A stretch of 64,000 bases of DNA. Source: Lingula anatina (taxonomy: Eukaryota > Animalia > Brachiopoda). The translations under genes were made by a program, and so were the position numbers. The notes below the pieces were generated by a model. That model saw only the letters and a list, made by a program, of their open reading frames with translations. It searched no databases and had not been told where the DNA came from. Each line of letters begins with the position of its first letter. Position 1 is the stretch's first letter. The DNA lies in the NCBI GenBank assembly GCA_051362555.1, contig CM120641.1:40430401-40494400 (forward strand). Direction: 5' to 3'. Below, one piece after another: positions 11,468-60,500 of this stretch.

Positions 11468-13189
11468 ACAGCCTCTTCTCAAGAAGTCTTGTTGCCTTTG
11501 TTTCACCAAAGTTCCATGAGTTTAAGTTTCCTATGCTTGTTGCACTCTGAATTCCCAAAGAATATTCACTTATTATTGCACCTTACTTGTAATAGTATTT
11601 GAACATAATGTGCAGTTGTTGCACCTGGTTATTTTTGTTTTTAGCATGCAGTTAACAAATAGGTCTGTGTCAGTGCATAGTTTCATGAAAATGTGATTTG
11701 CAAAGCATATGTTATGTTTGATTTGTCGAATTAATTAAGTAAATACTAAGTAATCTTTTATAGATATAATTTAACATGTAACAAATGTTATTGCTGTTGA
11801 GTTTTTGTAGTCAGTAGAGAATTGCAGACTTCCGTCTCACCAACACCTCACTGGATGTTCTTGGGCTATCATTGTTAAGTACCTCATTGCACCAGTATTT
11901 TTTATATCTTTCAATTTCTCTTTAAATGCTGCAGGTTGCTGCATGTGGATTTAATTTGTACCAAAATGACTATAATGACGTATTGAATGTTTTAAGAGGG
12001 GGGTTTCTTGATTTAATTACTCTTTTACATAATGCTTCTGTTTAAACAATTTTTAATGTGACATATTTTTGATTTTTTGATTGAAGTTCAAAATGTAAGG
12101 TGCCAAAACCCAAAAATTTGTAGACTTATATTGAAACTTCCAAATTGATCATGTAGTGAAAAATGCTAAGAACAAAGATATCATTGGAAACCATTTACAT
12201 TAATTAGTGTATTGTGTCCTTATTTAAATGCAATTTGCATTGTAGGGAAAAATTGACTCAGTGAACCTGTCCAAACTTACAATAATGTATTAGGGACATT
12301 TGTATGGTCATATTTTTGATAAAGTACACTTACATTCTTGTATGATATCCTTGTTACCTTGTTTTTAAACTGGACTTTTTGTGTTTGTTGAAAATTAAGT
12401 AATGGATGATTCTTGTTAATAAATAAATTTTGAAATGTTATTATGGTGTTTCAATATTTTGTGCAAAAGAATAAAAGGAAAATAATAACAGTGTTACTGA
12501 TTATGACTATTGACTAGAAAAGAAAATGAAATTCCTTAGTTCTTTATGGGGCTTTGGAATTTTTCAGACTATACGAGTAGAGTATAAATTCTGAAATTGC
12601 GTGACCAAATGCCTGATGCACAGGTAGATCCAAAAATTGGCAATGCAAATCCCTCTCTTTCATATTTAAATTGAAGGTAGAAGCATATAATCTATATTAT
12701 AGCAGAAACGGCTAGTTTGAAAACGATGAATAGGACATTACTAACATTGTGTCAGGTGAGACAAGGTGGACCTTGCAGAATGTGCGGGTGAGACAAATTG
12801 TAAACACCATTTCACAACGTTTCACAACAGATCGACACTACCGGTGTAATATGATTTCTGTAGTACAGTGCTCATAAACCATGCATTTGATTCAGTATGA
12901 TGACAAAAGAAACTTTTTCTAACAGGTGAGTTTGAAATACAGCATGTTTAGCAGTATCAATTTTAAAGACAGCTGAGTAACATAAAAATTTAAGTGACTC
13001 GAACCTTGAAGTTACATTCGATATATTGTTCATTAGTTCCGTCTTTATACGTACTATAGTTGATTAAAGGGTTTGCGATTTTACATTTTACAATGAATAT
13101 TTGTCATGCTCATAAGCTAAATGTAATCAAAACTATTTAAGAGAGTGTAGTACTACCTGTACTACGTACTTAAAGTCTTTCAAGTCTTA

Positions 13190-13470
13190 GAGGCCGTCCC
13201 CATAATTAACCCAGTCGTACTAGCTCGATTAATCTAACACCTAATAGGGGATTCTCACTAAATTGCATTCAGTTTAGCACGGCTCCTGGTAAAGTAAAGT
13301 ACTTGAGTAAAGTCGGGAACTTTGTGCTCCAAGATGTTGTTCATGTTGGTTTGCAAGGGGGCGTGCCAGACAATTAAGGTGCTTGTAATGTACATTGACT
13401 TGCCATAGTGAGAATCCCTGCTGAGATAGATTATTAAATAACTCCTCATGCAGGCAGGGGCTGATGTAGG
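13190..13470. mobile_element. Degenerate non-autonomous DNA element, related to the copy at about 61180-61433
   Basis: GGATTCTCACTAAATTG at 13249-13265 also occurs at 61236-61252, with inverted partner TAGTGAGAATCC at 13406-13417. Boundaries are approximate. Confidence 0.5.
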
Positions 13471-13654
13471 CCGTCTTCTGGATCTTCCGGAAGACGGTCA
13501 GATTTTCAAGTTTACATTGAAGGGTATCTAATTTTTCTGTTGGAAGATTGTCAAAAATGAAGAATGGATCAACAAAGATAATTCGGAAGACTGTCAGAAA
13601 ATATCTCTGAATCTGCTCCTGTCCTGCAGTATGGACCAGTGTGCTGAGGTTATG

Positions 13655-13801
13655 CAGGGCCGTAGCCTGAGCAAAATGCCAGGGGGGGCAGTAAGCGGAC
13701 ACGAGGGGGCAAGCTACAGAGGGGGGAGGGTGTGGTGTGTAAAATTCCAAATTCCAGGGGGGGCAGCTGCCCCCCCTGCCCCCCCGGAGGCTACGGCCCT
13801 G
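13655..13801. mobile_element. GC-rich MITE, 147 bp, CAG ends, 5-bp TSD (hAT-like)
   Basis: Perfect TIR CAGGGCCGTAGCC...GGCTACGGCCCTG, TTATG on both flanks, G/C-run interior. Confidence 0.85.
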
Positions 13802-13950
13802 TTATGGAAACGCAATCTTTAAAGTCTAGTAATAATTTGCACTCTGCCTGCTCCCCAAACCATTCCCTGCCCACTGAGTGCCACAATAATAATGTGGTAT
13901 CAAAACAGCAGCAGTTTTTTTTCCATTTCAGCAGATAAAAACAGGACCCA

Positions 13951-16900
13951 ATGGAATCTTCAAGTTCAAATCCAGATTTATTGGCCCTAGCAACAGCTAG
14001 TGTCCAGGCTCAGGAAAGATTGCACTTGGAGCTGAAGAAGAGGAAAGTGAAGAAGAGAGATGGTAAATCTACATCAGGTACTATAGTACAGTGCATAGTG
14101 TTCTGTTCAGTGAAATATTACATTTACACTTACTATACTGACTTTTAAACTAAGAAAACTTTTGATCTAGACCTAAATTAACATACACATTGTCAAGAAT
14201 TTCTGGTGACCTGTAGAGATATTTCAGTGTTATTAAATACCTGAATTGAAGTTGGCATAACAGTTTGACTATTATTCATTTCAGCATTTGACCATTCCAT
14301 ACAAGCATTAGAACATCTTCAGTCCTTGAAGGCAGAGCTTGAAGACAGAGATTTCAAGCTTCATGACTATAGTTCTAAGGTCACAGAAGAAGGACTGCAG
14401 TCTCTGAGGCAGCTTTGCCTCATGCATGTTCCCAGCTCTGTCACAGAAGATGTTAGAGGGTCATTTCAGGAAAAAATCCAAGATATATTTGAAGGTACTC
14501 ATAGATGTGTTCTATAGAAAGGAAACAAAACATTCAGATAAGATACATATAATTAGATTTTGTTGGTAACCATGTTTCACATAATATATTTGATTTAACC
14601 ATCTTTTTTTTTTTTTTTTTTTTTTTTGCACACAGTTGAATTCTCATACATTTGAGAAATGTCTGTTAATGTACAATGTATGTACTTTAAAATGTATAGA
14701 AATTTTTGCTAAACAACCCGACTTGGGTCTTTATAATACACAAAAGACATTGCCTGCAAACTGCCCGAAAGACAATCACTGCTGTTAGTTAATTATAGTG
14801 TGTGTGTTCATAGTCCGATAGATGTTATTTGATTTTTTTTTTAATTTAAAGCACGTAGATTGAGTGACTTTCAATTCCTGTATCGTTAAATGGTTATTTC
14901 ATTTTTTTTTTGCCACAGATTGATAAGATAATTGTAATTTTAGGTTGGAGCAGAGAAGTCTTATTTGCTGCAATCATAACTTGTCCATGGTACTGGGCCA
15001 CACAAGAAGAAAGAGGGCAGCAGGCCAAGCATAACTCTATTTTAGTGATTTATGTAGGGCAGGATGAGGAGTTCTTTGCTCCAATTAACAGACATTTTAA
15101 AGAGCAGCACAATGTTATAGATTTGGTGAGCAAGGTGTTTTGAAATTATTCAGAACTTATATCTCTGTCAGGTTTGCAATTAAATATCATTTTGTGTTCA
15201 CTTGTGTATCTAATGAATTGCCATATGTTTCCCATGTTTTTGTACTTTGTAGAAACATTAAATCTTTTTCTTAAAAATAATCTTTTTTTCAGGGATGGTT
15301 TTATGCCGCAGAAGTTTTTCATTTTTGCAACTATGCTGTTAAGGGAAAACAAAGATTTGTTGAGGCTTTATGTCTACCACAGACAGCAATCATATTTGAA
15401 TCTGACCAGTGGGTGAACATGAAAACTTCTCTTACCAGCCAATTGCTCAGTGAGTAAAACAAACATTTTTTTAATTCATACATTTAGCAAACATGGGAAG
15501 ATCAAATATGACATTGCTTGAAATTTGCTTGCCAGAAATAATTTCCTATGTACATATTAAAATTAATTGAAAAAAAATCAATTTCTGAACATTCTGTCTA
15601 CAAAATTGAACTTAATATTAAGAATTTTGAAAATTTCATAAAACTGGTAAAAATACTTCATATTCTGAGGTTCTGCGTATGTACATTTTCTTCTCTGTCA
15701 TATTTTGACTATGAAAATCTTCATCAAGGCCATCTACTGATCATTTGACAATTTGAAAATTTAGCAAAAAAAAAAAGTAATAGTAAGTACTTGTAATTGT
15801 CAGTGAATAATAAAACAACAAAAATTATAATTAATATACAAAAGTTATTTGATTCTCCACAGATCTCAGGGGATTTTTGGAGCAGTGTCGGGGCCAAGCC
15901 ATTGGTGGTATATCCAAGAAGAGCAAAGTTTCTGGACAGATGCGGCTGAGTGATAAGGCTACACTTTATGAAATGAGCCAATCATTTCGCCTCTTACATA
16001 GTGCATCATGTGTCTTAAATGGTGAAATACCTTCAATGGACTGTATTCTGGAAGCTGATAATCTTTCAGATGTGGGCAAAGAAGCTCTCAGAAAACTCCA
16101 GGCAGCTTATCAGGTAAACATGAAATGACTAAGTTTGTGTTGAAAAAGATTTAAATCCATAGTCCACTAGAAGAATGTTCCTGGTGTTGTTATTAGAATA
16201 CTCAAGACTGGTGAAGTTGTTTTTCTTATTTTTGTTGAAATATAAGTCCTGCTTTTGACAAAAGTTATGGTTAAATTTTATTGTTGCTGTTTTTATCTCA
16301 GTATAATCATTACAGGATGAAACCATGTCCAAGCTAGACTTATTTGATATTGTACAGCGATGGAAAAAGGAGGTGGATTGTAAAATGTCCAAAGCAAAAT
16401 TCAATAAACTGGAAAAAGTACAAGAAGAGCTTGGCAAGTGGCAGGCTGATGTCAGGTGCTGTCAGAAAAATGTGAACTTCCAAAAACTGGGTAATGGAAC
16501 TGCATCATTACCTGTTTAATAATTAGGGTTTTATTATTTAAAAAATAATTTCCTTCAGATTAGAACAAGTATAAGGTGATCATGGTATCCTGAATGGTTA
16601 TTGGGATTGGTAATTCCTGATCATAACCACAAAAGAGGAACTTGTTCCCAATAATATTTTTTTATTTTTAAAAATGTCAAAGAGAGTAACATATTTCCAA
16701 TGGAAATTAGTGTCTTTAAAATGCCACTGTTTGAAATTAAATGTCTCCTAATGCATAAGAAAAAGGTAAGGGGTTGTGAATCATGGACCCCACTTTGCGC
16801 ATTATTTAGAAAGTAGCAAATATTTCATTCAGTTTTCTATTTCAGTTGTTGAAGATTCTGCTAGAGACTGCTTGCTGTCACTAATGAAGAAGATTGGAGG

Positions 16901-19093
16901 TCCAGTAGCTAGTATGGAACCTGAGCAAATAGTCATGATAGCACAAGCAGGGAGTTATTTATATAACCTGGCAACACCTGATAGTGATGTGGATTACATT
17001 ATAGTTTATCTTACTCCCACAGAGGTGAGTCTCAATTATGTTGTTCAAAATGGTTTCAACATTAGGAAAAAAACTTGAGAAAGGGAGAAAAAACTCTTAA
17101 GCCTAATTATTTCCCCGAATATGTTAGTCAAAATAGTGTGAATCAGGAAAGTGTACTGTCTAATTTGAAAAAGACCGGGATTAAAACGCTGAGTGTATCT
17201 TGCACATCATTTCATGATTATTTTACCAATTGAATATTATTGATATGATATCGTTATCAGAATTTCATAAATCCAGTCTGCTTATTATAAAGCATATAGT
17301 TTATTTTGAACATTTCAGAAAATAATAAGTTCCTGTGGCATAGGAAATGAATCGTATGAGAATCGTGGCCCCCAGAAGCAGTTTGAGTATGGAGCGTATG
17401 AGGCAAGACTGTTCTGTGAGATGCTCAGTAAAGGCAGTGTGGTCATCTTGGAGGCTAGTTTCAGAACTTTACTTGGATATTTTTTATAAATTAATTAATC
17501 AATTTTTATTGTACGGAGAGGGTGTAGTCAAATTCTTCTTTAATAGACATGCATGATGCAGCTATAATATTTGTAAAATCTGAAGAAGTTTATTGATGAA
17601 AGTAAACAAATGGTATGAAGATGTTATTCAAAGTTGAAGCATATCAGGAATATACGTAGGTATGTAAAACAAAGAAGCAGAATGTAATGATAAAAGTACC
17701 TTTCTCTCCAGGAAAAGGATAGAAGTATCTCTCACTCTATTATCTGTTACTTTTTTGTTTCTCCTACAGCTAGTTTTCTCTTTGGATCTGGAATATACCA
17801 GCTCAGCCTGGAGGGTAAGTTGGACAAACGATGACAGCTGTCCCATATGTATATAACTACAGTTGGTTAATGCCTTTTTTGTAGGATGTTTAACTGATTA
17901 AAAAACGTATGTAATCAAATATTAAAGCACATTATTTCTCTTCAAATCAACACTCATTCTTGTTATAGTTTAAGTGATAAGGTAATGATTTGATATTCTC
18001 AGTAGGTAAAATTGACATTGATGTTGAGTGGTAGCAACAAAGTAGAAAAGCAGGCTACCCTAAAGTTCTGTTCTCTACAGTTAAAGCACTTAAATGCTAT
18101 ACAGAATATATTTTTAAGGATTTCAAAATTATGTATTTGAAAGATTGACAGTTTTTTCCTTTGAAAAGTTGGTCATTACCATATTTTATTTTAAATGCAT
18201 GAGAATGATTAATCAGCTTACTAGTATGTTAATGGGGTCATAACAAGTGACAAGTTAACAATTTGAATGTAATGGACAAATATACTTGGCTTACTCAATG
18301 TTCATTATTTGATTTGTTGTTTATCATTATTAGATTTTTTGTATGAACAGGAATTGGTCAGTCATAAGCAAGACTTTGTGACAGAAACTGCCATCCAGCA
18401 ATACCTAGGTCTTGTAAAAAACAACATGAAAATGATTGAGGGTGGTAAACACCAGGGCACATCCAGGGAGAGGAAGCTTTTTTATCAGGTACATTTATAA
18501 CTATTCACTAGGTGTGTTGTACATTTCACAGGTTGCATAATTATTGAACTTAAATGCTATTTTAGATGAATAGTTTTAACTTTAAAAGTTTGACCTACTT
18601 CAGACGTTCCACAAGCTGGACAGCCTGGAGTTCTTCCTCCAGGGTAACCCGCCCCCAGTTAAATGTTCAGGGCACATCAAGGATTTCATCATGAAGATAA
18701 GACAAGGACCTCTTGAGGTAATGACAAGAATAAAATATTTTAAAACAAGTCGGCAGAAAATCCTAGCATTGGTTACTTCCACCATCAGAAATAACATCAT
18801 CTCTATTTAGAATGTTCGACCTTTACTGAACATTTCACCTTGTAGTCAGTTTCTTTTGTTTGTTATTAACCTATTGCATTTTTTAGAAGAGAGTTTCATA
18901 TTTTGAAGGACTTATTTATTTTTAGGGAGAAATTTCTAGAGAAATTTTGTTCAAACTGGCTGAAGAAAGACTACAGAAACTTCAATCTGCTTTTGCTGGC
19001 AGAGCTTGCAGGCTTCCAGAGCATGCTAACACAAAGTATCTGACCGACTGGCTGATGCGCACTAGGGGATGGAAAGTGGAGCCCCAGAGTTGA
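13951..19093 (+). CDS. Tandem RlaP/YcgL (Nuc-transf)-like Pol-beta superfamily nucleotidyltransferase, about 626 aa
   Basis: Exons 13951-14077, 14285-14494, (optional 14700-14783), 14944-15125, 15293-15449, 15863-16113, 16316-16490, 16846-17024, 17319-17453, 17770-17814, 18351-18488, 18604-18717, 18926-19093 join into one open frame. The C-terminal domain has AGSYLYNLATPDSDVDYIIVY (GS-x-DxD), YGAYEARLFCEMLSKGSVVILE, IMKIRQG and RLPEHANTKYLTDWLMRTR. A probable non-coding first exon ends at 12925 (AG|GTGAG). Confidence 0.8.
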
Positions 19094-24100: not shown

Positions 24101-27100
24101 GCATATTTTCTAAAAATCTGTAATACAAGTGATGAAGGTTCAGGTTTGGGAGGCATGAATACAATACCCAAATATACGGATTAATTTCTACATAAATCAG
24201 GAAAACTTTCATCTTTACTTGTAACAGATGAAAACTAATGAAAGCCTCTGGGAAAAAATTGAACAAGCTCTCCTAGTAAGACTCACATATCCTGTGGTTC
24301 CCCTACAGTCGGCAGGCTGAGCTTGGTAAGCCGGGGGAAGTCCATCTCCTCCACCACATCCCAAGTGTCACGCACCTGCACTGACGCATCACGGTGCTTC
24401 AGCTGAATCTGAAAACAAGGAAACTATGCATTTAGTACACTGATCAACAGAGGAAAAAAACATAATCTTATTGTGGTGGTCAAAGTTATGAAATTATGAA
24501 CATTTATGAATATGTTTTGGAACATTGGTGAGTTTGTTCCCACTTTCCTTCCACCTTCCTATTTTAGCTCATGCTTCTAAAATACAAACATCTTTAATAA
24601 AGTTATCTTCAACATTTGACTGAAACCTCTTCCTTATTTGGCAAAATAAACCCAGTTATAGACTTGCGTTCTACCACAGTCAACTCTGAACTGCAGTCCA
24701 GGAGCATGCGCACAAGTAGGCAATTTATCACATTTTTGGTAGGTTATTAGTACTGTTACACAAGTGTTTTTCTTATGGAAATATTTCTTTTATGAATATT
24801 TATTAAATATTTATGCAGCATAACAATCATTGCTACTTGTACCGTCACATTGTTCACATCATTACCTTTTAATAAGTACAATAGTGTGAATGCTTAATAA
24901 AAGGTATCATTGATAAAAGTTCTGTAAATGTAACCTTAAAAGCAGTGTTTATTCCACTGCAGTTCTATTGGGATTTATTGAACTGCAGTTTGAAAGTGTG
25001 TAAGGTCCTTACACTTTACTGCATCAGATATGAATGTTTTTTCACTTTTCACACAGATGTTTTTTTAAGCTTTTTTTTTTTTTTTGAATACTCACTGCTG
25101 CATCTGATATATGTTTTAAGAACACTCATTATAATTCTCTCAAGATTTCTACAAACAATTAAGCAAAAACACACAGCAAATTAATTGGACACAATCCATG
25201 GGATGACTTTACTTCCTAGTGTGTGGGCAGTAAATCTGAACAGCTACTCCAGAGCTCTGGTATAAGAGCATAAAACAAGTAATTTATCCTTCACAGATTT
25301 TCCACTACTTTAAGCTGTTAACAACCAGCTGTCCTGGAGACAAACAACACTTTATCAAGCCATATATCTCAAAACATTGGAAGCATGTATGGGTTATGTT
25401 TGGTGTGGGCGGTCTCCTGGCCTGTTTTTTATCTATCAACACAGAAGAGTAAATGACAAGACATTTAAAAGATCCTGTTTCTAACCAGATATCCTATTTG
25501 TTGAACTGGTTAAGTAAGTACAATAAGAGCTAGGTCAGGAAAAGTGGGACCCTTTTCAATATAGGTGACTAAGAAACTGCCTACACCTATAATTTTAGTA
25601 GCTGTACTTACGCATAATGCTTACGGCTTCTGTGGGATACAGTCATGTCTAAGGTAAGTGGTAATTAAAACTGAAATAGTCGCTCCCCAAAACATTGGAA
25701 GCATCATAGACTATTCTTCCAACTTCATTAAGTTGAAAATAGGAAGGGGTTTATGGTAATTAATACATTTGACCAGAAGAAGGTAATATGAAGGTGAGAT
25801 ACCGTGTAGATAGAGCAGTGCGTATACATGGTAGGCATTAAAGGCTATGGTGTTTTTTAACGCCTTGGAATCTTTGGGGTTTTTTGTAACATAAAATTTA
25901 TGAAGTCAATAATTTACACATGAATCTGTCGACTCAGAACTTTATCTAGCTCCAGTCAAATCATAGTTGTAAGTAACCATTTTAACTTCTCTTCTTTTCT
26001 TCCAGTTAAAGATGTTGAATGAAGCACAACTGTTGCTTTTCCTATGTGTGTGTATAGGAACGTCAAAAGTACTAGTATCTGGGGCACCACAGCAAGAAAG
26101 CTGTCCACATGATTGCACATGCCAACCATCAAGTTTGTGGGATTTTTTAGAAAGCAAGATGAAAGAAGTAAACACAGTGTATGGAACAAGTGATAGTCTT
26201 TCCAATACAAAGACGAGCTTGACAAGCCTACTAGACCAGCTGAAACCCTTCTTTCAACTATTCCCTTGCTTAAACATCCAATGTGCTGTTCATGATGATT
26301 GGAGCTTTGACTTAAGTGAAAGTGTCAAATATGCCACTTCACAAGGTGTTTTTGTTACATTGAATGTTATCTGCCCCAGAGGAGCTGTGCTAAACTGGAC
26401 AGACACTGCCCCCTATAGTCAAATTGCTGGTCTGACAGTAAGGGGCTGTGCTTTACAGAAGAACACAAACATTTCAATTGAAAACACAGTTAACCTGATA
26501 GAAATAGATTTCTCTAATGTTGGCACAAACTGGTTTAGGCACGTTACAATCCATGCTCAAGCACTTTCCAATGTGTATAAATTAAGCTTAGAAAACAACA
26601 ATCTCACTACTTTTCCACTTGACACTAGTGGTTTTGGGATGAAAAACCTGCGCTGGCTGAATTTAAAAGGTAATCATTTTAGTTCAATAGACTGCGCCCT
26701 GCTGGAGAAATACGATACTTTAGTGGACATAAACATGGACAACAATTTAATCACAACCATCCCAAACTGTGTGACACAGCACAGATCTCCAAACCACGCT
26801 AAATTACATTTACGTCACAACCTCATCACAGACCTAGAAGCATGGTATGAACCAAAACGCGTCACCAGCTCTTTGTGGGGTCTTTATCTTGACTACAACA
26901 AAATCACAAGTCTGCGCAGAATTGCCAGTTGTAACCTACAGATTATTCACCTCAGCCACAACAATATCAACTACATCGAACCCTCCACATTCTGGAGTTT
27001 GAAGTACCTCATGGACGTTGACCTGAGCTACAATATGTTGAGCTACATAGAGCCAGGGACATTCACAGGTCTTCCCATAATAGACAGATTAGACTTGAGC

Positions 27101-30100
27101 AGTAACAAGCTTGTTGTTATAAGTGAGAGTATTTTACCAACCTTCCTTGGGATTTTAAACGTTAGTGCCAACCAACTGCAACATCCACCTTTCCATAACC
27201 CAGACTATCAAATCCCACCAATTAGAAATATCTATGCCAAAGACAATCCATTCCGATGTGACTGCACTAACTCATGGTTACAAAGTTACCTTCAAAAGGC
27301 AAACGTCACAGAGGTCTACTACCCATCTTCATATGAATTTCTTCACAGAGGAAAATACAATAACCTGTCACTTTCTACAAACCCATTTAAGGATATAGAA
27401 GATTTTCAATGTGCGAGTCCAGCCAAATGGAAAGATGACAAATTATTAGATCATATTGATTTTACTGCCGTTTGCCCAGTGGTTGAAGATTGCCCTTACC
27501 CATGCTATTGTAACTGGGACAACAGATTTAACCTAACAAAAGTCCACTGTGAAAATCTAAATATCACAACTCTGCCATCAGCGATGCCAAAAGGCAACCT
27601 CAGTATTTACTTACAGAACAACAAACTTGAAATAATCACAGATCAAGATTATTTCTCAAGAGTACATACACTTGTTGCCAGCAACAACTCAATTGCAAAA
27701 ATCACCAGCAGGATTTTCTGGTACATATCCCATGTGCAGCTGGATGGAAATATTCTAAAAAGTTTACCACAGGACATAGAAAGTATGAAAGGTCATAACA
27801 TAACTTCCCTTTCACTGAGCCGGAACCCATGGACGTGTTCCTGTGAAAACCTGTGGCTAAAGTCATGGCTTCTTAAAAAGAGAAAAGTCATCCACATGGA
27901 CTCCATTATATGTACAAATGAACCTGTTAAAGGAAAACCAATATCACAAGTAACGGAAGAAATGCTGCTTTGTCACCCTGCCAGCTACATTCAAGTAGCA
28001 GTATCTTTAGGCATTCTGCTCTTGCTGACACTCATAACAATAGCAGTCTTATATAAATATCGCTTTGAGGTCAAGGTTATCCTACACAGTCGCTTCAACT
28101 GGCATCCCTTTGATAGAGATCAAGAAATGACAGAAAAACTATATGATGCCTTCATTTCCTACAGCAGTGAGGACCGTTTATGGGTACACACCACCTTGGC
28201 TCCCACACTAGAAAACCAACAGTTACCTTATCGTCTCTGTATGCATTGCAGAGATTTTCTGCCAGGGGAGGCCATAGATAACAACATCATACAGGCCATT
28301 CAAAACAGCAGGTGCACCATTCTGGTGCTAACAAAGAACTTCTTAAAGAGCAACTGGTGCATATTTGAGTTCCAGCAAGCCCATTATCAAATGATCCACA
28401 ATGCTCACTTTAAGGTGATTGTCATCCTCAAAGAAGATATCCCAGCTAACGAGGAAATGGATGATGACCTCCGTGCCTACCTGAGAACTCATACCTACTT
28501 AGAGGCAAAGGACAAATGGTTTTGGAAGAAACTACTGTATGTGATGCCAACAATGAATAAAAATCACCATGAAAGAGGCTATAACCTTGCTCAGGATGGT
28601 GCAACAAATGTATAATGTCTGTAAAAGGAGGCATTTCAGCAGCTTGATATTTTTTAAAATAAATGTTAAATTCCAAATAAACAGAAAGAGAAAGACAATC
28701 AACATCAACAACTTTGTTTTTCACTTATAACCATGTACATTTTTAATACTTTCTAAGCTTAAAGAGATAACAACTGTTCATTTAGGTAAAAAAACAGATT
28801 TGCCTAGGGTAAACGATGATTTCCCCATACTTAACAATGGTTAATTAATTCATTCTGACATTTAAAGTTAGTCCATGTTATTTTTCTTATAAGTTTTTTT
28901 TTGGTAATAATCTCTTAAGAGTTGTTTACAATGTATTTATTTTGAAAAATGAATCTCATTTCAACAGTTGTTATCCCTTTATTATATATATATGTAGAAT
29001 TCAAGAATGGCAGCACATTTCCTTCTTAGAGCAGTGAGGTATCACAGCAGATAATACAATATGACTGAGAACAAGTAAAACAGAATATTCAAGATGGCTC
29101 ATTACTCTTTGATCATTGTTTTTTACTTAGTTCTTATATCAAATTTTGTTTATTAGTGAATCATAATAAAAATGATGCAATATTAAATGTAAAGTTACTT
29201 CACAAGTTATTTTATAAACCATAACTGTCCTACACAGTCTAATCTCTTTAAACCAGTTTAATGCTTAAGAGAAATAGGAGTGTAGATTTGATATCCAACG
29301 GCATGGAAAGAGGTACTTCATAGTTCTGTGTGAGAACAAAACTCAGCCTCCATGAAATCGTTGGTGTTGGTAAAGTCTAGATCTACTTTGCTTTACTCAA
29401 TGTAAACCTACCTTTCTCTGATCATGCATTGTGCGTCCAAACTGCTTCTGGAACTTACGTAGCTGACGCATACGATCCCTTAAAAAAATGAAAATAAGTG
29501 ATTATCTAGAAGTCAAAAATGGAGGTTTTTAAACAAATATGATTGCTCACATGTACAGCAGACAAATGTTAGAACACATCAGACATATCACTGATCAAGT
29601 ACTTTAGTTTACTGAACATTTACAGTCAAAATACAATAACATGAATTAACAATTCTTACCTTTCTCTACTCTTCTGCGTTTTAGAAAGCACCTGCATGCT
29701 TGCAGCATTTTGCTGTTGCCGCCGCTCTCTTTCACGTCGCAGTTTATTCTGTAACAAATTGGGTGAATCAGAATAAGACATTTCAGTTTGAGGTCATTTG
29801 CAGCTTTCCCCCCCCCCCCCCCTGTGAAATAAGTTCTCATTTAGTTGAAGATAGTTTAAAGGAAGTGTGTCCTTTCCTTACTTTTCGTAAGACTTGAAGA
29901 TGAAGTTTTCTTATAGAAGGGGGAATAATGTAGAAGTCCAACCCAAAGAATTTGACAGCTTTATTTTCAAAATAGCTCACCATTTGCGAAACCATAGTAT
30001 ATTGACTGCCTATTACACCAAAATTCTCATTCCAACATTTCACTTTGGCAATGCAAAAATACATGAAATCCTAGTTCTCATAATATCACTTATGAAAGTT

Positions 30101-31316: not shown

Positions 31317-42292
<10,976 letters not shown>

Positions 42293-44113: not shown

Positions 44114-54801
<10,688 letters not shown>

Positions 54802-57528: not shown

Positions 57529-60500
57529 TCACTTTTTTGCACTAGACAAAGAAGCTGCTATCCCACCTAAAGATGGAAAGTCTGTATCTAAACCGTGAGC
57601 TGCCAAATGCATTTCAGAGTCTTCCTTTAAGAGAACCTGATTGCAAATATGGCAAGGAGTAAAAAGCACCGCATTCCCGGAGGTCCACCCTTTTTTCTTG
57701 GCACGAATCTGAAGCACATCATTCTTTTTCTTATCAACTGCAGTATTGTAGACTTCTAGTAGCTCATTCTGTTTAGATACGTCTGGCAGTAAAGTGACTA
57801 GTTCTGGGAAAATTGTGTCAAATTGTTTCTCCCCAAACAGATCTTGGCAATGTCTGTAGTATTCTCCTGCTTGCAGTAAACCTTTCCTAAATTCACCAGA
57901 CCACCCTTTAAACTTCCCAAACTTAACTTCGTCCTGCAGGCCGTCTAAAATTAATTTCATCAACTTCTGATTTCTTTGCTTGAAATCGGCAGGCTGTATG
58001 TAAGACGATGTCACCTTATCTTGTGTTGAAATATTTTCCACACTGTTCAGTGGGTTTGAGAAGCCAGGTGGTGGTTTGGGTACTTGTGGGCTTGTGAAGC
58101 CAGGTGGGGGATTGGCAACTGTTTTATTAAATCCTGGGGGAGGCCTGCTGAAGTTAGTGGCACAGCTATCGCCCTTACTAAACCCAGGTGGTGGTTTACT
58201 TGGCTGTTGGACAGTGCTCAATAAACTAGGAAAGTCAGCATCTAAATTTTGTTGAATCTGTGGTTGTGGTGGATTCTTTGAAACAGACTTGTATACTATA
58301 AGTGGCTTTTCCTCTGGTGGTGGTGGTGAATGCTTTTTGAAGGGCAAGTTGTATAGATCAAAGCCAGATTCTTCTTTTGCAGCATCATTTTCTTCCTTTT
58401 TATTTTCTTTTTTGGAAGACTTCTTTTTCTTTTCCAGAGGCTCCTTGTTTTCTAAACTAGAACTAGAACTCTCAGTATATTCAGTTTTTCCGTGACTTTT
58501 CTGTTCCTCAGATGTTTTCTGACAATCTGTGCCTGTAGCTTTATTTTTCTTTTTCTTCTTTTTGGTGGATACTTTCATGAAAGGAACCTCATCTTCTTTC
58601 TCTGCTTCTTTTACTGGTTTCACCCACTTAGTATTGAGTACTAACTGGGGGTCAGATTTGCCCAGTGAAGGAAAATCTTCCTCGGCTACCAATGAGGATA
58701 TTTCTTTTAAACTTGAAGGACGAGGCAGACTACCTTTTAACTGAGTGTTCTTCAAAGCAATATTTCCTATCACAGCGGGTGCATTACTAGGTCTCTGTTT
58801 CACCTTGGACATTTGTTTTGTGATAGACGGTGCCCCATCTCCTGGACCTAAAGCAGGAAAATCTTCTTCTAAAGATGCCTTTGTATTAATCCAAGCCTGT
58901 TGATTTTTAACAGGTACTTTCCTTATAGTACTATTGCTCTTACTGCTGCCTCCAAGAGATGGAAATTCCTCTTGAGTCAATCCACCTTCAGCAACTGAGA
59001 AGTTATTAGCCATTGCAAACCTCTGTGCCATTGAACTAGTTTTTGACTGAACAGGTGCTTGGGAGTCTGTCTCACTATTAGTCGCAGTGTCTTCATCTCT
59101 CAAGGATGGGAAGTCAGCTGAAGTACGCTTAAACTGTGTTCCAGCTTCTTCAGAATCTCTCTTACTTTTGCCCGACTTTGCCTTCTTTTCCATGTCTGCC
59201 ATGGATGCTTGTATACCTGCTTCCAGTTCAGTATCCATCCTGTCAACACAATGAAAACAGACATTTTATTATGCTTGCTTTAAAAAATACAATAATTTGG
59301 TGACTGCATCCCTTTGTTTTTTAATATTTAAGAAGAATAGCATTTTCAATTTGGAGATGAAATCCTATACAGACAAGTGTTTTTCCAGTCCCAATTTTAC
59401 AATTTGAATACTAAACAAGTGGACACGTTCATGTTAGTTATTTATTTTAACATGTATCATGTTATTTATGGCAAGACCAGCACAATCCATTGGAAATCAT
59501 CCAAGATGTAGCTACTATGTGACAACATATGAGTATGAAAACTTGGGAGAATGCGCAGGTGGGATTTACCTTTTTAGCAACAAGGCAGGAAATCTACAGA
59601 GTCTAAGAGCACATTCTCACAGATAAATTTCTAGCTTACCTCCCTTTCCCATGTCCCCTATTCTGTGCCTGTCTTAATTGCTTTTCTGCATTATTTATGA
59701 CTTCTTGGTAGTCTTCTCTGCTTATAACACCTAAAATATCATTATGTACTTTGTGTAATACACAGCAAATGGTAATTTCATTTAGTTTTATCTGAATAAA
59801 GTACACACATAATATTGCTATTTACCACCATGTTTTACAATAGCACGAAACACGAACAACAACAGGGACCAAAATGCTAAGAGACAAGACTTTAAGCTAC
59901 AGCTTATCTTCAAAATTATAATATCTTTCAATCTTTTCAAATTACTGCATTTCACTTTTACCTCTTCCTCTGCCTCTGTGACTTTCTCTTGGTGCATAAT
60001 TGAATTCTATGTCCAAGGTTCTAGCTTGCCTAGCCTGAGCTTTTTTCATTGCTTTCGTGTGCTCAGTGGCCTTATGGGCTCTCAGATCTATGTCACTTCT
60101 AAATGCATTGGTGAATTGAACGCCCCTGCATTCATCCTCTTCACAAAGATAGTGCTGTCCCCTAAAGTGATCTTGAAGATCCTTGTAGTTTCTGTAAAAA
60201 TATCAAAACATAATTGTTATCCACAAACAGTATGCTCCCCAACAAAAGAGAGCTAACTAGATATGAAATTCAATGTTAAAGACCATTTCATCATTTTAAT
60301 GACGGCATAAACCTTTTTTGTGCAATCACAGCTCAAAGTTAAATGTACCTACTATTACACTCATCTTATATGATATTATTTATTTTTGGACTTACTCAAA
60401 ATAGTCTTGTAGTCCATCTGTATCACAAAAATGACAGAAATAGTGATCTTTCCTAAGATGTTTCAGTAGTTCATCATTATCAAAGTAACGCACATCACAG

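Follow-up and report, generated by a model that had tools for sequence, protein, structure and literature searches.

The RlaP proteins (Pfam family PF10127) are nucleotidyltransferases of the Pol-beta superfamily, and the family and its predicted role in RNA end repair are already known (PMC7824862, PMC6514570). A few eukaryotic members have been reported as well (PMC12776372). Two Pseudomonas proteins, PfRlaP and PaRlaP, add one or two nucleoside monophosphates (NMPs) to the 3'-OH end of RNA and then stop. They use any nucleoside triphosphate and also deoxyadenosine triphosphate (dATP), prefer Mn2+ and mimics of cleaved tRNAs, and partly restore the charging of the tRNAs they repair (PMC12776372). 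The present work concerns a gene of the brachiopod Lingula anatina, located between positions 13951 and 19093 of a stretch of 64,000 nucleotides (contig CM120641.1 of assembly GCA_051362555.1, positions 40,430,401 to 40,494,400 of the forward strand), hereafter the window. This gene is real and spliced, its product belongs to PF10127, and it joins a degenerate N-terminal RlaP module to an intact C-terminal one, a tandem that had escaped an earlier note made from the letters of the window. Exon 7 retrieves the entry 'uncharacterized protein LOC106178780, Lingula anatina' (P0001), to which the window model is 97.1% identical. This entry served as a stand-in for remote searches; its numbering is 5 lower than that of the window model in the C-terminal part.

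Compared by description with PfRlaP and PaRlaP, the animal protein shares the Pfam family, a Pol-beta nucleotidyltransferase domain with a helical domain and a terminal helix, and three conserved acids (PMC12776372). The Pseudomonas proteins are single modules with three Asp, belong to network cluster 1a, and are encoded between rtcB and rtcA (PMC12776372), whereas the animal protein has two modules, an N-terminal hairpin and a Glu as third acid, and its gene contains spliceosomal introns and has no adjacent ligase. The phage T4 NrdC.11 kind of RlaP, represented by the phage family phrog_388 (PHROG nucleotidyltransferase), provides the closest profile to P0001 (E-value, E, of 1.5e-28). The earlier note had proposed AlphaFold plus Foldseek as a check. 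Predicted phage nucleotidyltransferases match the modules with template modelling (TM) scores of up to 0.78 between predicted models, while matches to solved structures are weak. These phage proteins differ in having a single module and in lying apart from the animal proteins in the trees described below; 644 phage records match, and in the best 40 of the 644 only the C-terminal module was matched, at 22-24% identity. A tandem of one intact and one motif-less RlaP module does exist in gp218 of Bacillus phage G (its halves match at E 2.9e-12), which is the best two-module structural match. In gp218, however, the active module comes first, identity is 12%, and the protein groups with phage proteins, so that its tandem is most likely an independent duplication. 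This uncharacterised protein (L001:215-1774) is annotated only as 'NrdC'; of the 920 phage records that match, no other spans the query from end to end.

The reality of the gene was established by its splicing. Inspection of the splice sites gives a model of 12 coding exons, open from the ATG at 13951 to the TGA at 19093 on the + strand, with a single terminal stop and with a further stop codon in frame ahead of the ATG. The RNA evidence consists of raw reads from eight runs, of which 6-30% each was read. Joints are listed for 10 of the 11 coding introns in the reads of four runs that bear the same species label. Most of these joints recur in four further runs, which also reveal a 5' non-coding exon whose last base is 12925, so that the total comes to at least 13 exons. 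The protein counts 626 amino acids when the RNA-supported exon-3 donor at 15125 is used; a donor at 15134 was rejected because the RNA uses 15125, as was a model ending exon 6 at 16455 and starting exon 7 at 16865, since the RNA joins 16490 to 16846. Intron 2 (14495-14943) has no joint among the RNA joints listed; it is used by the NCBI model P0001 and contains a poly-T stretch that interrupts the reads. Intron 8 (17454-17769) is of the GC-AG type, with reads in seven of the eight runs, and the remaining introns are GT-AG. Transcript depth is low, about 1-10 reads per run in the portion read, and steady in all eight runs, and the stranded-looking libraries fit a + strand transcript. The GC content is 43% in exons vs 28% in introns. 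The neighbours (GAMT, eIF3d, a receptor with leucine-rich repeats (LRR) and a TIR domain, a Ras-family GTPase and ZNF598) are animal or eukaryotic genes. Contamination and gene-model artefact are ruled out by the spliced reads, the GT/GC-AG introns, the animal neighbours and the orthologues found in many species. The earlier note had counted 12-13 exons and about 626 amino acids and had argued from introns and neighbours against contamination; these claims hold, and the spliced transcript on which they depended is present.

Membership of PF10127 was assessed with profiles. P0001 exceeds the cut-off of the Pfam RlaP profile (38.9 bits vs 23, residues 387-550), as the earlier note had expected. 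The profile matches 31 of 32 aligned homologues, and a precomputed PF10127 assignment accompanies 33 of the 35 homologues collected (the three not aligned are one that is nearly a duplicate, one further form from Mya and one fragment). The families that could have displaced this assignment do not: the TUT, PAP, Mab21-cGLR, OAS and SMODS profiles gave no match to P0001 at E up to 1. An MTPAP-like palm is weakly matched in 14 of the 32 homologues, at best with E 0.013. The Pfam scan of P0001 contains no TUTase or PAP-associated domain, zinc knuckle or RRM, sequence searches of the PDB returned no relative, and NCBIfam holds no family for P0001. Profiles were required for these assignments, as blastp with each half as a single query yielded no useful result among the matches listed. 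All the motifs quoted in the earlier note are in place (GS...DxD at residues 403-417, EYGAYE...ILE at 450-472, and the tail motifs at 564-568 and 600-618), and the alignment of 32 homologues places the catalytic residues in the C-terminal module, as claimed.

The predicted structure of P0001 (predicted local distance difference test, pLDDT, 91.7; predicted TM score 0.88) begins with a helical hairpin (8-84), followed by two alpha/beta-plus-helical units that resemble one another, and it shows the family layout of nucleotidyltransferase domain, C-terminal helical domain and terminal helix. In hhalign the N-terminal half is paired with the C-terminal half at 92% and E 5.6e-7. A profile built from 88 motif-bearing modules, from which the named animal proteins were excluded, scores module 1 in 32 of 32 homologues (17-44 bits) and none of the 32 reversed controls. 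Profile-profile comparison of module 1 with motif-bearing modules gives 98.7% and E 2e-16 in hhalign, and a language-model search groups module 1 with nucleotidyltransferase/RlaP clusters (0.94). In module 2, using P0001 numbers, G398, S399, D410 and D412 are invariant in 32 of 32 homologues, and E445, E450 and E467 in 31 of 31; E445 is the probable third metal ligand, judging by where it sits on its strand and by how it aligns with gp218. The equivalent residues of module 1, placed by reading column tables, are C121-P122, K/R136-x-N138 and W170, and an acid occupies position 136 in one homologue of 32 and positions 138 and 170 in none. By the profile results module 1 is a second, RlaP-derived module, and because the G-S motif and the acids are replaced in this manner (C-P / (K,R)-x-N / W), it is very likely catalytically dead. 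It is nevertheless conserved, with a mean column identity of 0.56 vs 0.64 in module 2, and C121, W123, N138 and R351 are invariant. Its basic hairpin (236-252) carries a net charge of +2 to +6 in 32 of 32 homologues. Positions conserved at 80% comprise 13 Lys/Arg and 6 Asp/Glu in module 1, and 17 and 19, respectively, in module 2. By our reading of the intron positions, the two modules have no intron site in common.

The relative position of the two modules can be compared with that in other tandems. The top viral structural match of the animal protein is gp218 (TM 0.57, 580 columns, root-mean-square deviation, rmsd, 6.3), where single modules reach at most 0.33. The reverse-order tandem P0096, which groups with amoebozoan proteins, matches gp218 with TM 0.65 and rmsd 7.5, where single modules reach at most 0.39. 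One module of 250 residues could give at most about 0.40 for the animal protein and 0.49 for P0096. The observed scores are above this ceiling, and therefore the superposition extends over both modules, which are similarly placed with respect to each other. A single-module relative, P0128, is predicted to pair with itself, scoring 0.60 vs 0.33 for the best of three controls; at least 90% of the contacts recur between runs (pLDDT 88), and of the solved structures used to set the mark for self-pairing, 21 of 30 pairs attain it and none of 23 single chains does. The superposition over both modules of predicted tandems that have opposite orders suggests that the tandem is a fused dimer.

By analogy with the Pseudomonas enzymes, the animal tandem most likely adds one or two NMPs to RNA 3'-OH ends for RNA repair, with the fused-dimer arrangement just described; we put the probability of this at roughly 0.55. 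Module 2 would extend RNA 3'-OH ends by the Pseudomonas RlaP chemistry, and module 1 would serve as the fused partner and as an RNA-binding or specificity part. Nibbled tRNAs or other RNA ends would be restored in this way before ligation, and a 5'-P/3'-OH ligase would complete the repair. C12orf29, an RNA ligase of this type, is reported to have orthologues in some molluscs (PMC9931718). The link to RNA is proposed because a relative from Platysulcus (P0049) carries a YTH RNA-binding domain fused to three RlaP modules, because of the RlaP biochemistry, and because module 1 is basic. The supplement of PMC12776372 takes the grouping in one network cluster to argue for a single reaction shared by the family.

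The same chemistry could also serve regulatory or decay RNA tailing, in which case module 1 would recruit a particular RNA or a partner protein. TUT4/7, like OAS2/OAS3, combine inactive N-terminal nucleotidyltransferase duplicates with an active C-terminal domain (PMC12922763, PMC6488673), and the inactive N-terminal duplicate of TUT4 binds Lin28:pre-let-7 (PMC6488673). This likeness is one of architecture only, as these proteins belong to other Pol-beta families and give no profile match. The YTH fusion in the relative and the low, steady expression in eight of eight runs would suit tailing too. However, RlaP halts after 1-2 nucleotides and favours cleaved-tRNA mimics (PMC12776372), and none of the accessory domains named above (TUTase/PAP-associated domain, zinc knuckle, RRM) was found in P0001, so that tailing appears quite unlikely.

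Several observations weigh against nucleotide addition in RNA repair by a fused dimer. The animal modules are far nearer to phage-like single modules than to the other subgroup that could be built: module 2 matches the phage-like singles at E 1e-51 and the proxy profile for the other subgroup at 4e-9, and the values for module 1 are 3e-14 and 2e-4. We take this proxy profile to be YcgL-like. The RlaPs assayed belong only to network cluster 1a, and T4 NrdC.11 falls in cluster 5 (PMC12776372). The proposed function thus appears to be carried across subgroups, because the assayed RlaPs are in cluster 1a and the animal modules appear to be phage-like. The RNA ligase gene adjacent to rlaP in RtcB-RlaP-RtcA and 5'-P ligase operons has no counterpart beside the L. 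anatina gene, which is flanked by GAMT and eIF3d (the search covered the window). No animal ribotoxin that would call for such a repair has been identified. As regards the dimer, the predicted self-pairing surface is no more conserved than average in the two animal modules (0.55 vs 0.53 and 0.63 vs 0.65). Every superposition sets one predicted model against another, and the rmsd values are 6.3-7.5. The available part of the PfRlaP paper makes no mention of a dimer (PMC12776372).

A further point against it concerns solved structures, whose best matches, HalB of the Hailong system and aminoglycoside nucleotidyltransferases, are not RNA-repair enzymes; the matches are weak and generic. HalB (PDB 9dbh) matches module 2 with Z 8.9 and rmsd 4.5 over 175 residues at 11% identity (Foldseek E 2e-3); it differs in making a tyrosine-primed oligo-dA for the HalA channel (PMC13434031). 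It raises the alternative of a nucleotide-signal synthase in which module 1 would act as a nucleic-acid sensor and a short oligonucleotide messenger would be the product of module 2, in the manner of OAS2/OAS3 or HalB. Besides the first rank of an oligo-dA maker among solved structures, this alternative can claim the dead-N, active-C layout of OAS2/3 (PMC12922763), the acceptance of dATP by PfRlaP (PMC12776372), and a patchy distribution and three Sycon paralogues that resemble those of conflict genes. The HalB match is modest, however, with a Z near the noise range, the OAS, Mab21 and SMODS profiles were without match, and no effector is known. Moreover, identities of 41-52% across brachiopod, annelid and mollusc, with mostly one match per labelled species, suggest steady selection. 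A signalling role is therefore considered unlikely.

The aminoglycoside nucleotidyltransferases point to another alternative, the nucleotidylation of a protein or small molecule, as by MNT antitoxins, the DrrA AMPylase domain or the aminoglycoside nucleotidyltransferases themselves, with module 1 as specificity part. The fold matches ANT(4') (E about 1e-3), ANT(3,9) and LinB, and the N-terminal region of DrrA matches residues 85-332 of the model, corresponding to module 1, with Z 6.5. These matches are weak and reflect the common Pol-beta fold, whereas PfRlaP and PaRlaP left E. coli proteins and DNA unlabelled (PMC12776372) and the YTH fusion of the Platysulcus relative points to RNA. Nucleotidylation thus seems very improbable, and RNA 3'-end repair is retained as the preferred reading.

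The taxonomic distribution of the homologues is patchy. An organism label accompanies 27 of the 35 homologues, which come from 23 molluscs, 2 annelids, 1 brachiopod and 1 sponge; no chordate, arthropod, nematode, cnidarian or echinoderm is among these 27. This is consistent with the statement in the earlier note that no human orthologue was known, without being proof of absence. The full HMMER search returned 2253 proteins at E up to 0.001, and the relatives were drawn from the best 150 of these, with an organism look-up for 30 proteins. The organisms found in this way are Lymnaea, Ephydatia, Sycon, Platysulcus, Diphylleia, Acytostelium and Stenamoeba. Among the matches listed, 60 new relatives have at least 450 residues; two or three modules were counted in 56 of them and exactly one full GS...DxD in 52, an outcome that the length cut and the two-module query both favour. 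The amoebozoan tandems have the intact module first. The third modules of some protist-like relatives, which belong to another RlaP subgroup, keep D-x-D, and calling them dead was accordingly rejected. A relative of P0047 has the dead-first layout and is encoded on an intron-containing contig beside RasGEF and non-ribosomal peptide synthetase (NRPS) genes. No relative turned up when DNA of viral contigs, of prokaryote genomes and, for P0042, of metagenomes was scanned; these scans used exact short words and constitute weak evidence. A search for shorter homologues gave two fragments only.

Some of these relatives are unusual in their own right. Among P0049, P0073 and P0114, RlaP modules are joined to a YTH domain (Platysulcus) or to a Methyltransf_24 domain, and there are three-module proteins that unite two RlaP subgroups. 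An NRPS-type open reading frame (ORF; condensation, AMP-binding and PP-binding domains; L005:3-3746) adjoins the tandem RlaP gene on an intron-containing eukaryotic contig. In BFVD, giant-virus proteins named 'endonuclease V' or 'exonuclease' and the baculovirus proteins HE65/ORF132 hold a region matching the RlaP fold.

Three trees of motif-bearing modules were built, a quick one of 112 rows, a quick one of 69 rows under a mixture model, and a careful one of 42 rows chosen from these together with P0047; truncated Capitella and Amphimedon rows were left out. They are rooted with a long-branch outgroup, and named bacterial RlaPs are absent from the rows. All three agree in grouping the animals with P0042 (support 96/87), then with four dead-first tandems (98/91), which share the CPW...KxN dead module, then in a clade with Diphylleia and Platysulcus (100/99), while four phage proteins fall apart from the animal ones. 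A clade of lophotrochozoans and phages, a grouping named after the earlier trees were seen, is rejected by the approximately unbiased (AU) test (p=8.6e-5). For strict monophyly of the animals the trees give neither proof nor rejection (AU p 0.22), P0042 falling inside the animals. Inheritance from unicellular eukaryotes followed by many losses is the simplest reading and fits better than capture specific to animals, because the trees nest the animal proteins among those of protists and not those of phages. The deeper source of the family may still be bacterial or viral.

Capture of a bacterial or phage gene in animal ancestry, either as a single event or as two events, one in sponges and one in lophotrochozoans, with introns gained later, would agree with a family that is overwhelmingly bacterial and viral (PMC12776372) and with labelled animal matches confined to sponges and lophotrochozoans. 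The tree moreover contains many close rows without organism, and the prokaryote scans supplied no named bacterial RlaP for it. Capture is nevertheless improbable in view of the position of the animals inside the clade with Diphylleia and Platysulcus modules and beside tandems of the same layout, of the dead-first tandem gene found near RasGEF on an intron-containing contig, and of the AU rejection. The description in the earlier note of an enzyme domesticated in animals from bacteria or phages is thus unsupported as worded, and the phylogeny that it proposed for separating transfer from loss favours losses.

The two-module animal RlaP appears to be new, although the PF10127 label is already attached automatically in databases, which limits the surprise. 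No paper on animal RlaP proteins or on the tandem was found among the literature records listed; Burroughs and Aravind 2016 or the supplement of PMC10400998 may list animal members. Animal Pol-beta nucleotidyltransferases have repeatedly proved to be immune or RNA-quality enzymes, and the conserved RlaP tandem is an unstudied one, absent from labelled vertebrate, insect and nematode matches. If RNA repair is indeed its function, nucleotide-restoring repair extends to animals. The 2025 RlaP preprint supplies a clear assay, and the animal tandem makes the roles of the dead module and of RlaP pairing directly testable. A wider proposal, tentative and on balance doubtful, is that an ancient eukaryotic defence against RNA damage survives in sponges, molluscs, annelids and brachiopods and has been lost from model animals. 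In the fused RlaP dimer, the dead half would recognise cleaved or foreign RNA and the active half would rebuild bases for a C12orf29-type ligase or make an oligonucleotide signal. The pairing of one active with one dead module would then be a general rule of the family, reached independently in animals, amoebae and phage.

Table 1. Exons and protein regions of the L. anatina tandem RlaP gene (positions in the window)
Feature	Position	Strand	Evidence and remarks
5' non-coding exon	12851..12925	+	3' end fixed at 12925; at least 75 nt; RNA joint GT..AG to 13932 in 3 of 4 runs
Coding exon 1, ATG at 13951	13932..14077	+	Model and RNA
Coding exon 2	14285..14494	+	5' joint in RNA; 3' joint from NCBI model P0001
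Coding exon 3, TCPWY...KHN motif from 14979 on (module 1 counterpart of GS...DxD)	14944..15125	+	RNA donor 15125
Coding exon 4	15293..15449	+	Model and RNA
Coding exon 5, conserved Lys/Arg-rich hairpin of module 1	15863..16113	+	Model, RNA, predicted structure and alignment
Coding exon 6	16316..16490	+	Model and RNA
Coding exon 7, Gly-Ser 16950-16955, Asp 16986-16988 and 16992-16994	16846..17024	+	RNA; residues invariant in 32/32 aligned homologues
Coding exon 8, putative third acid Glu 17385-17387, GC donor at end	17319..17453	+	RNA; Glu in 31/31 homologues covering the site
Coding exon 9, 45 nt	17770..17814	+	Model and RNA
Coding exon 10	18351..18488	+	Model and RNA
Coding exon 11	18604..18717	+	Model and RNA
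Coding exon 12 to stop codon	18926..19093	+	Model and RNA
N-terminal helical hairpin region, residues 8-89 (predicted)	13972..14424	+	Predicted structure
Module 1, degenerate RlaP, residues 90-360, without GS and catalytic acids	14425..16468	+	Profiles, alignment, predicted structure
Module 2, RlaP with intact catalytic motif, residues 367-620	16487..19072	+	Pfam/PHROG profiles, alignment

The remainder of the window contains several other features. A single long ORF (25973-28612) encodes LRR and TIR domains and is a candidate Toll-like receptor. A RING-finger ORF (33026-35733), detected by a weak Pfam match, is presumably TRAF7-like. A Ras-family GTPase (54511-54798), which we take to be Rac-like, and ZNF598 (57532-59265) lie further downstream, and no link between them and the RlaP gene is claimed. 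The eIF3d gene occupies the - strand, tail to tail with the RlaP gene; between 19800 and 20300 reads run in both directions, and the 3' ends of the two genes may meet or overlap. The last intron of eIF3d has two alternative splice sites. Upstream of the coding region, a dispersed repeat (13455-13622) is covered by hundreds of RNA reads on each strand, and unrelated loose ends flank it at either side. Finally, the intron in the 5' untranslated region of the RlaP gene holds a GC-rich element of 147 bp (13655-13801) that has terminal inverted repeats of 13 bp and is flanked by a direct repeat of 5 bp, resembling a miniature inverted-repeat transposable element.

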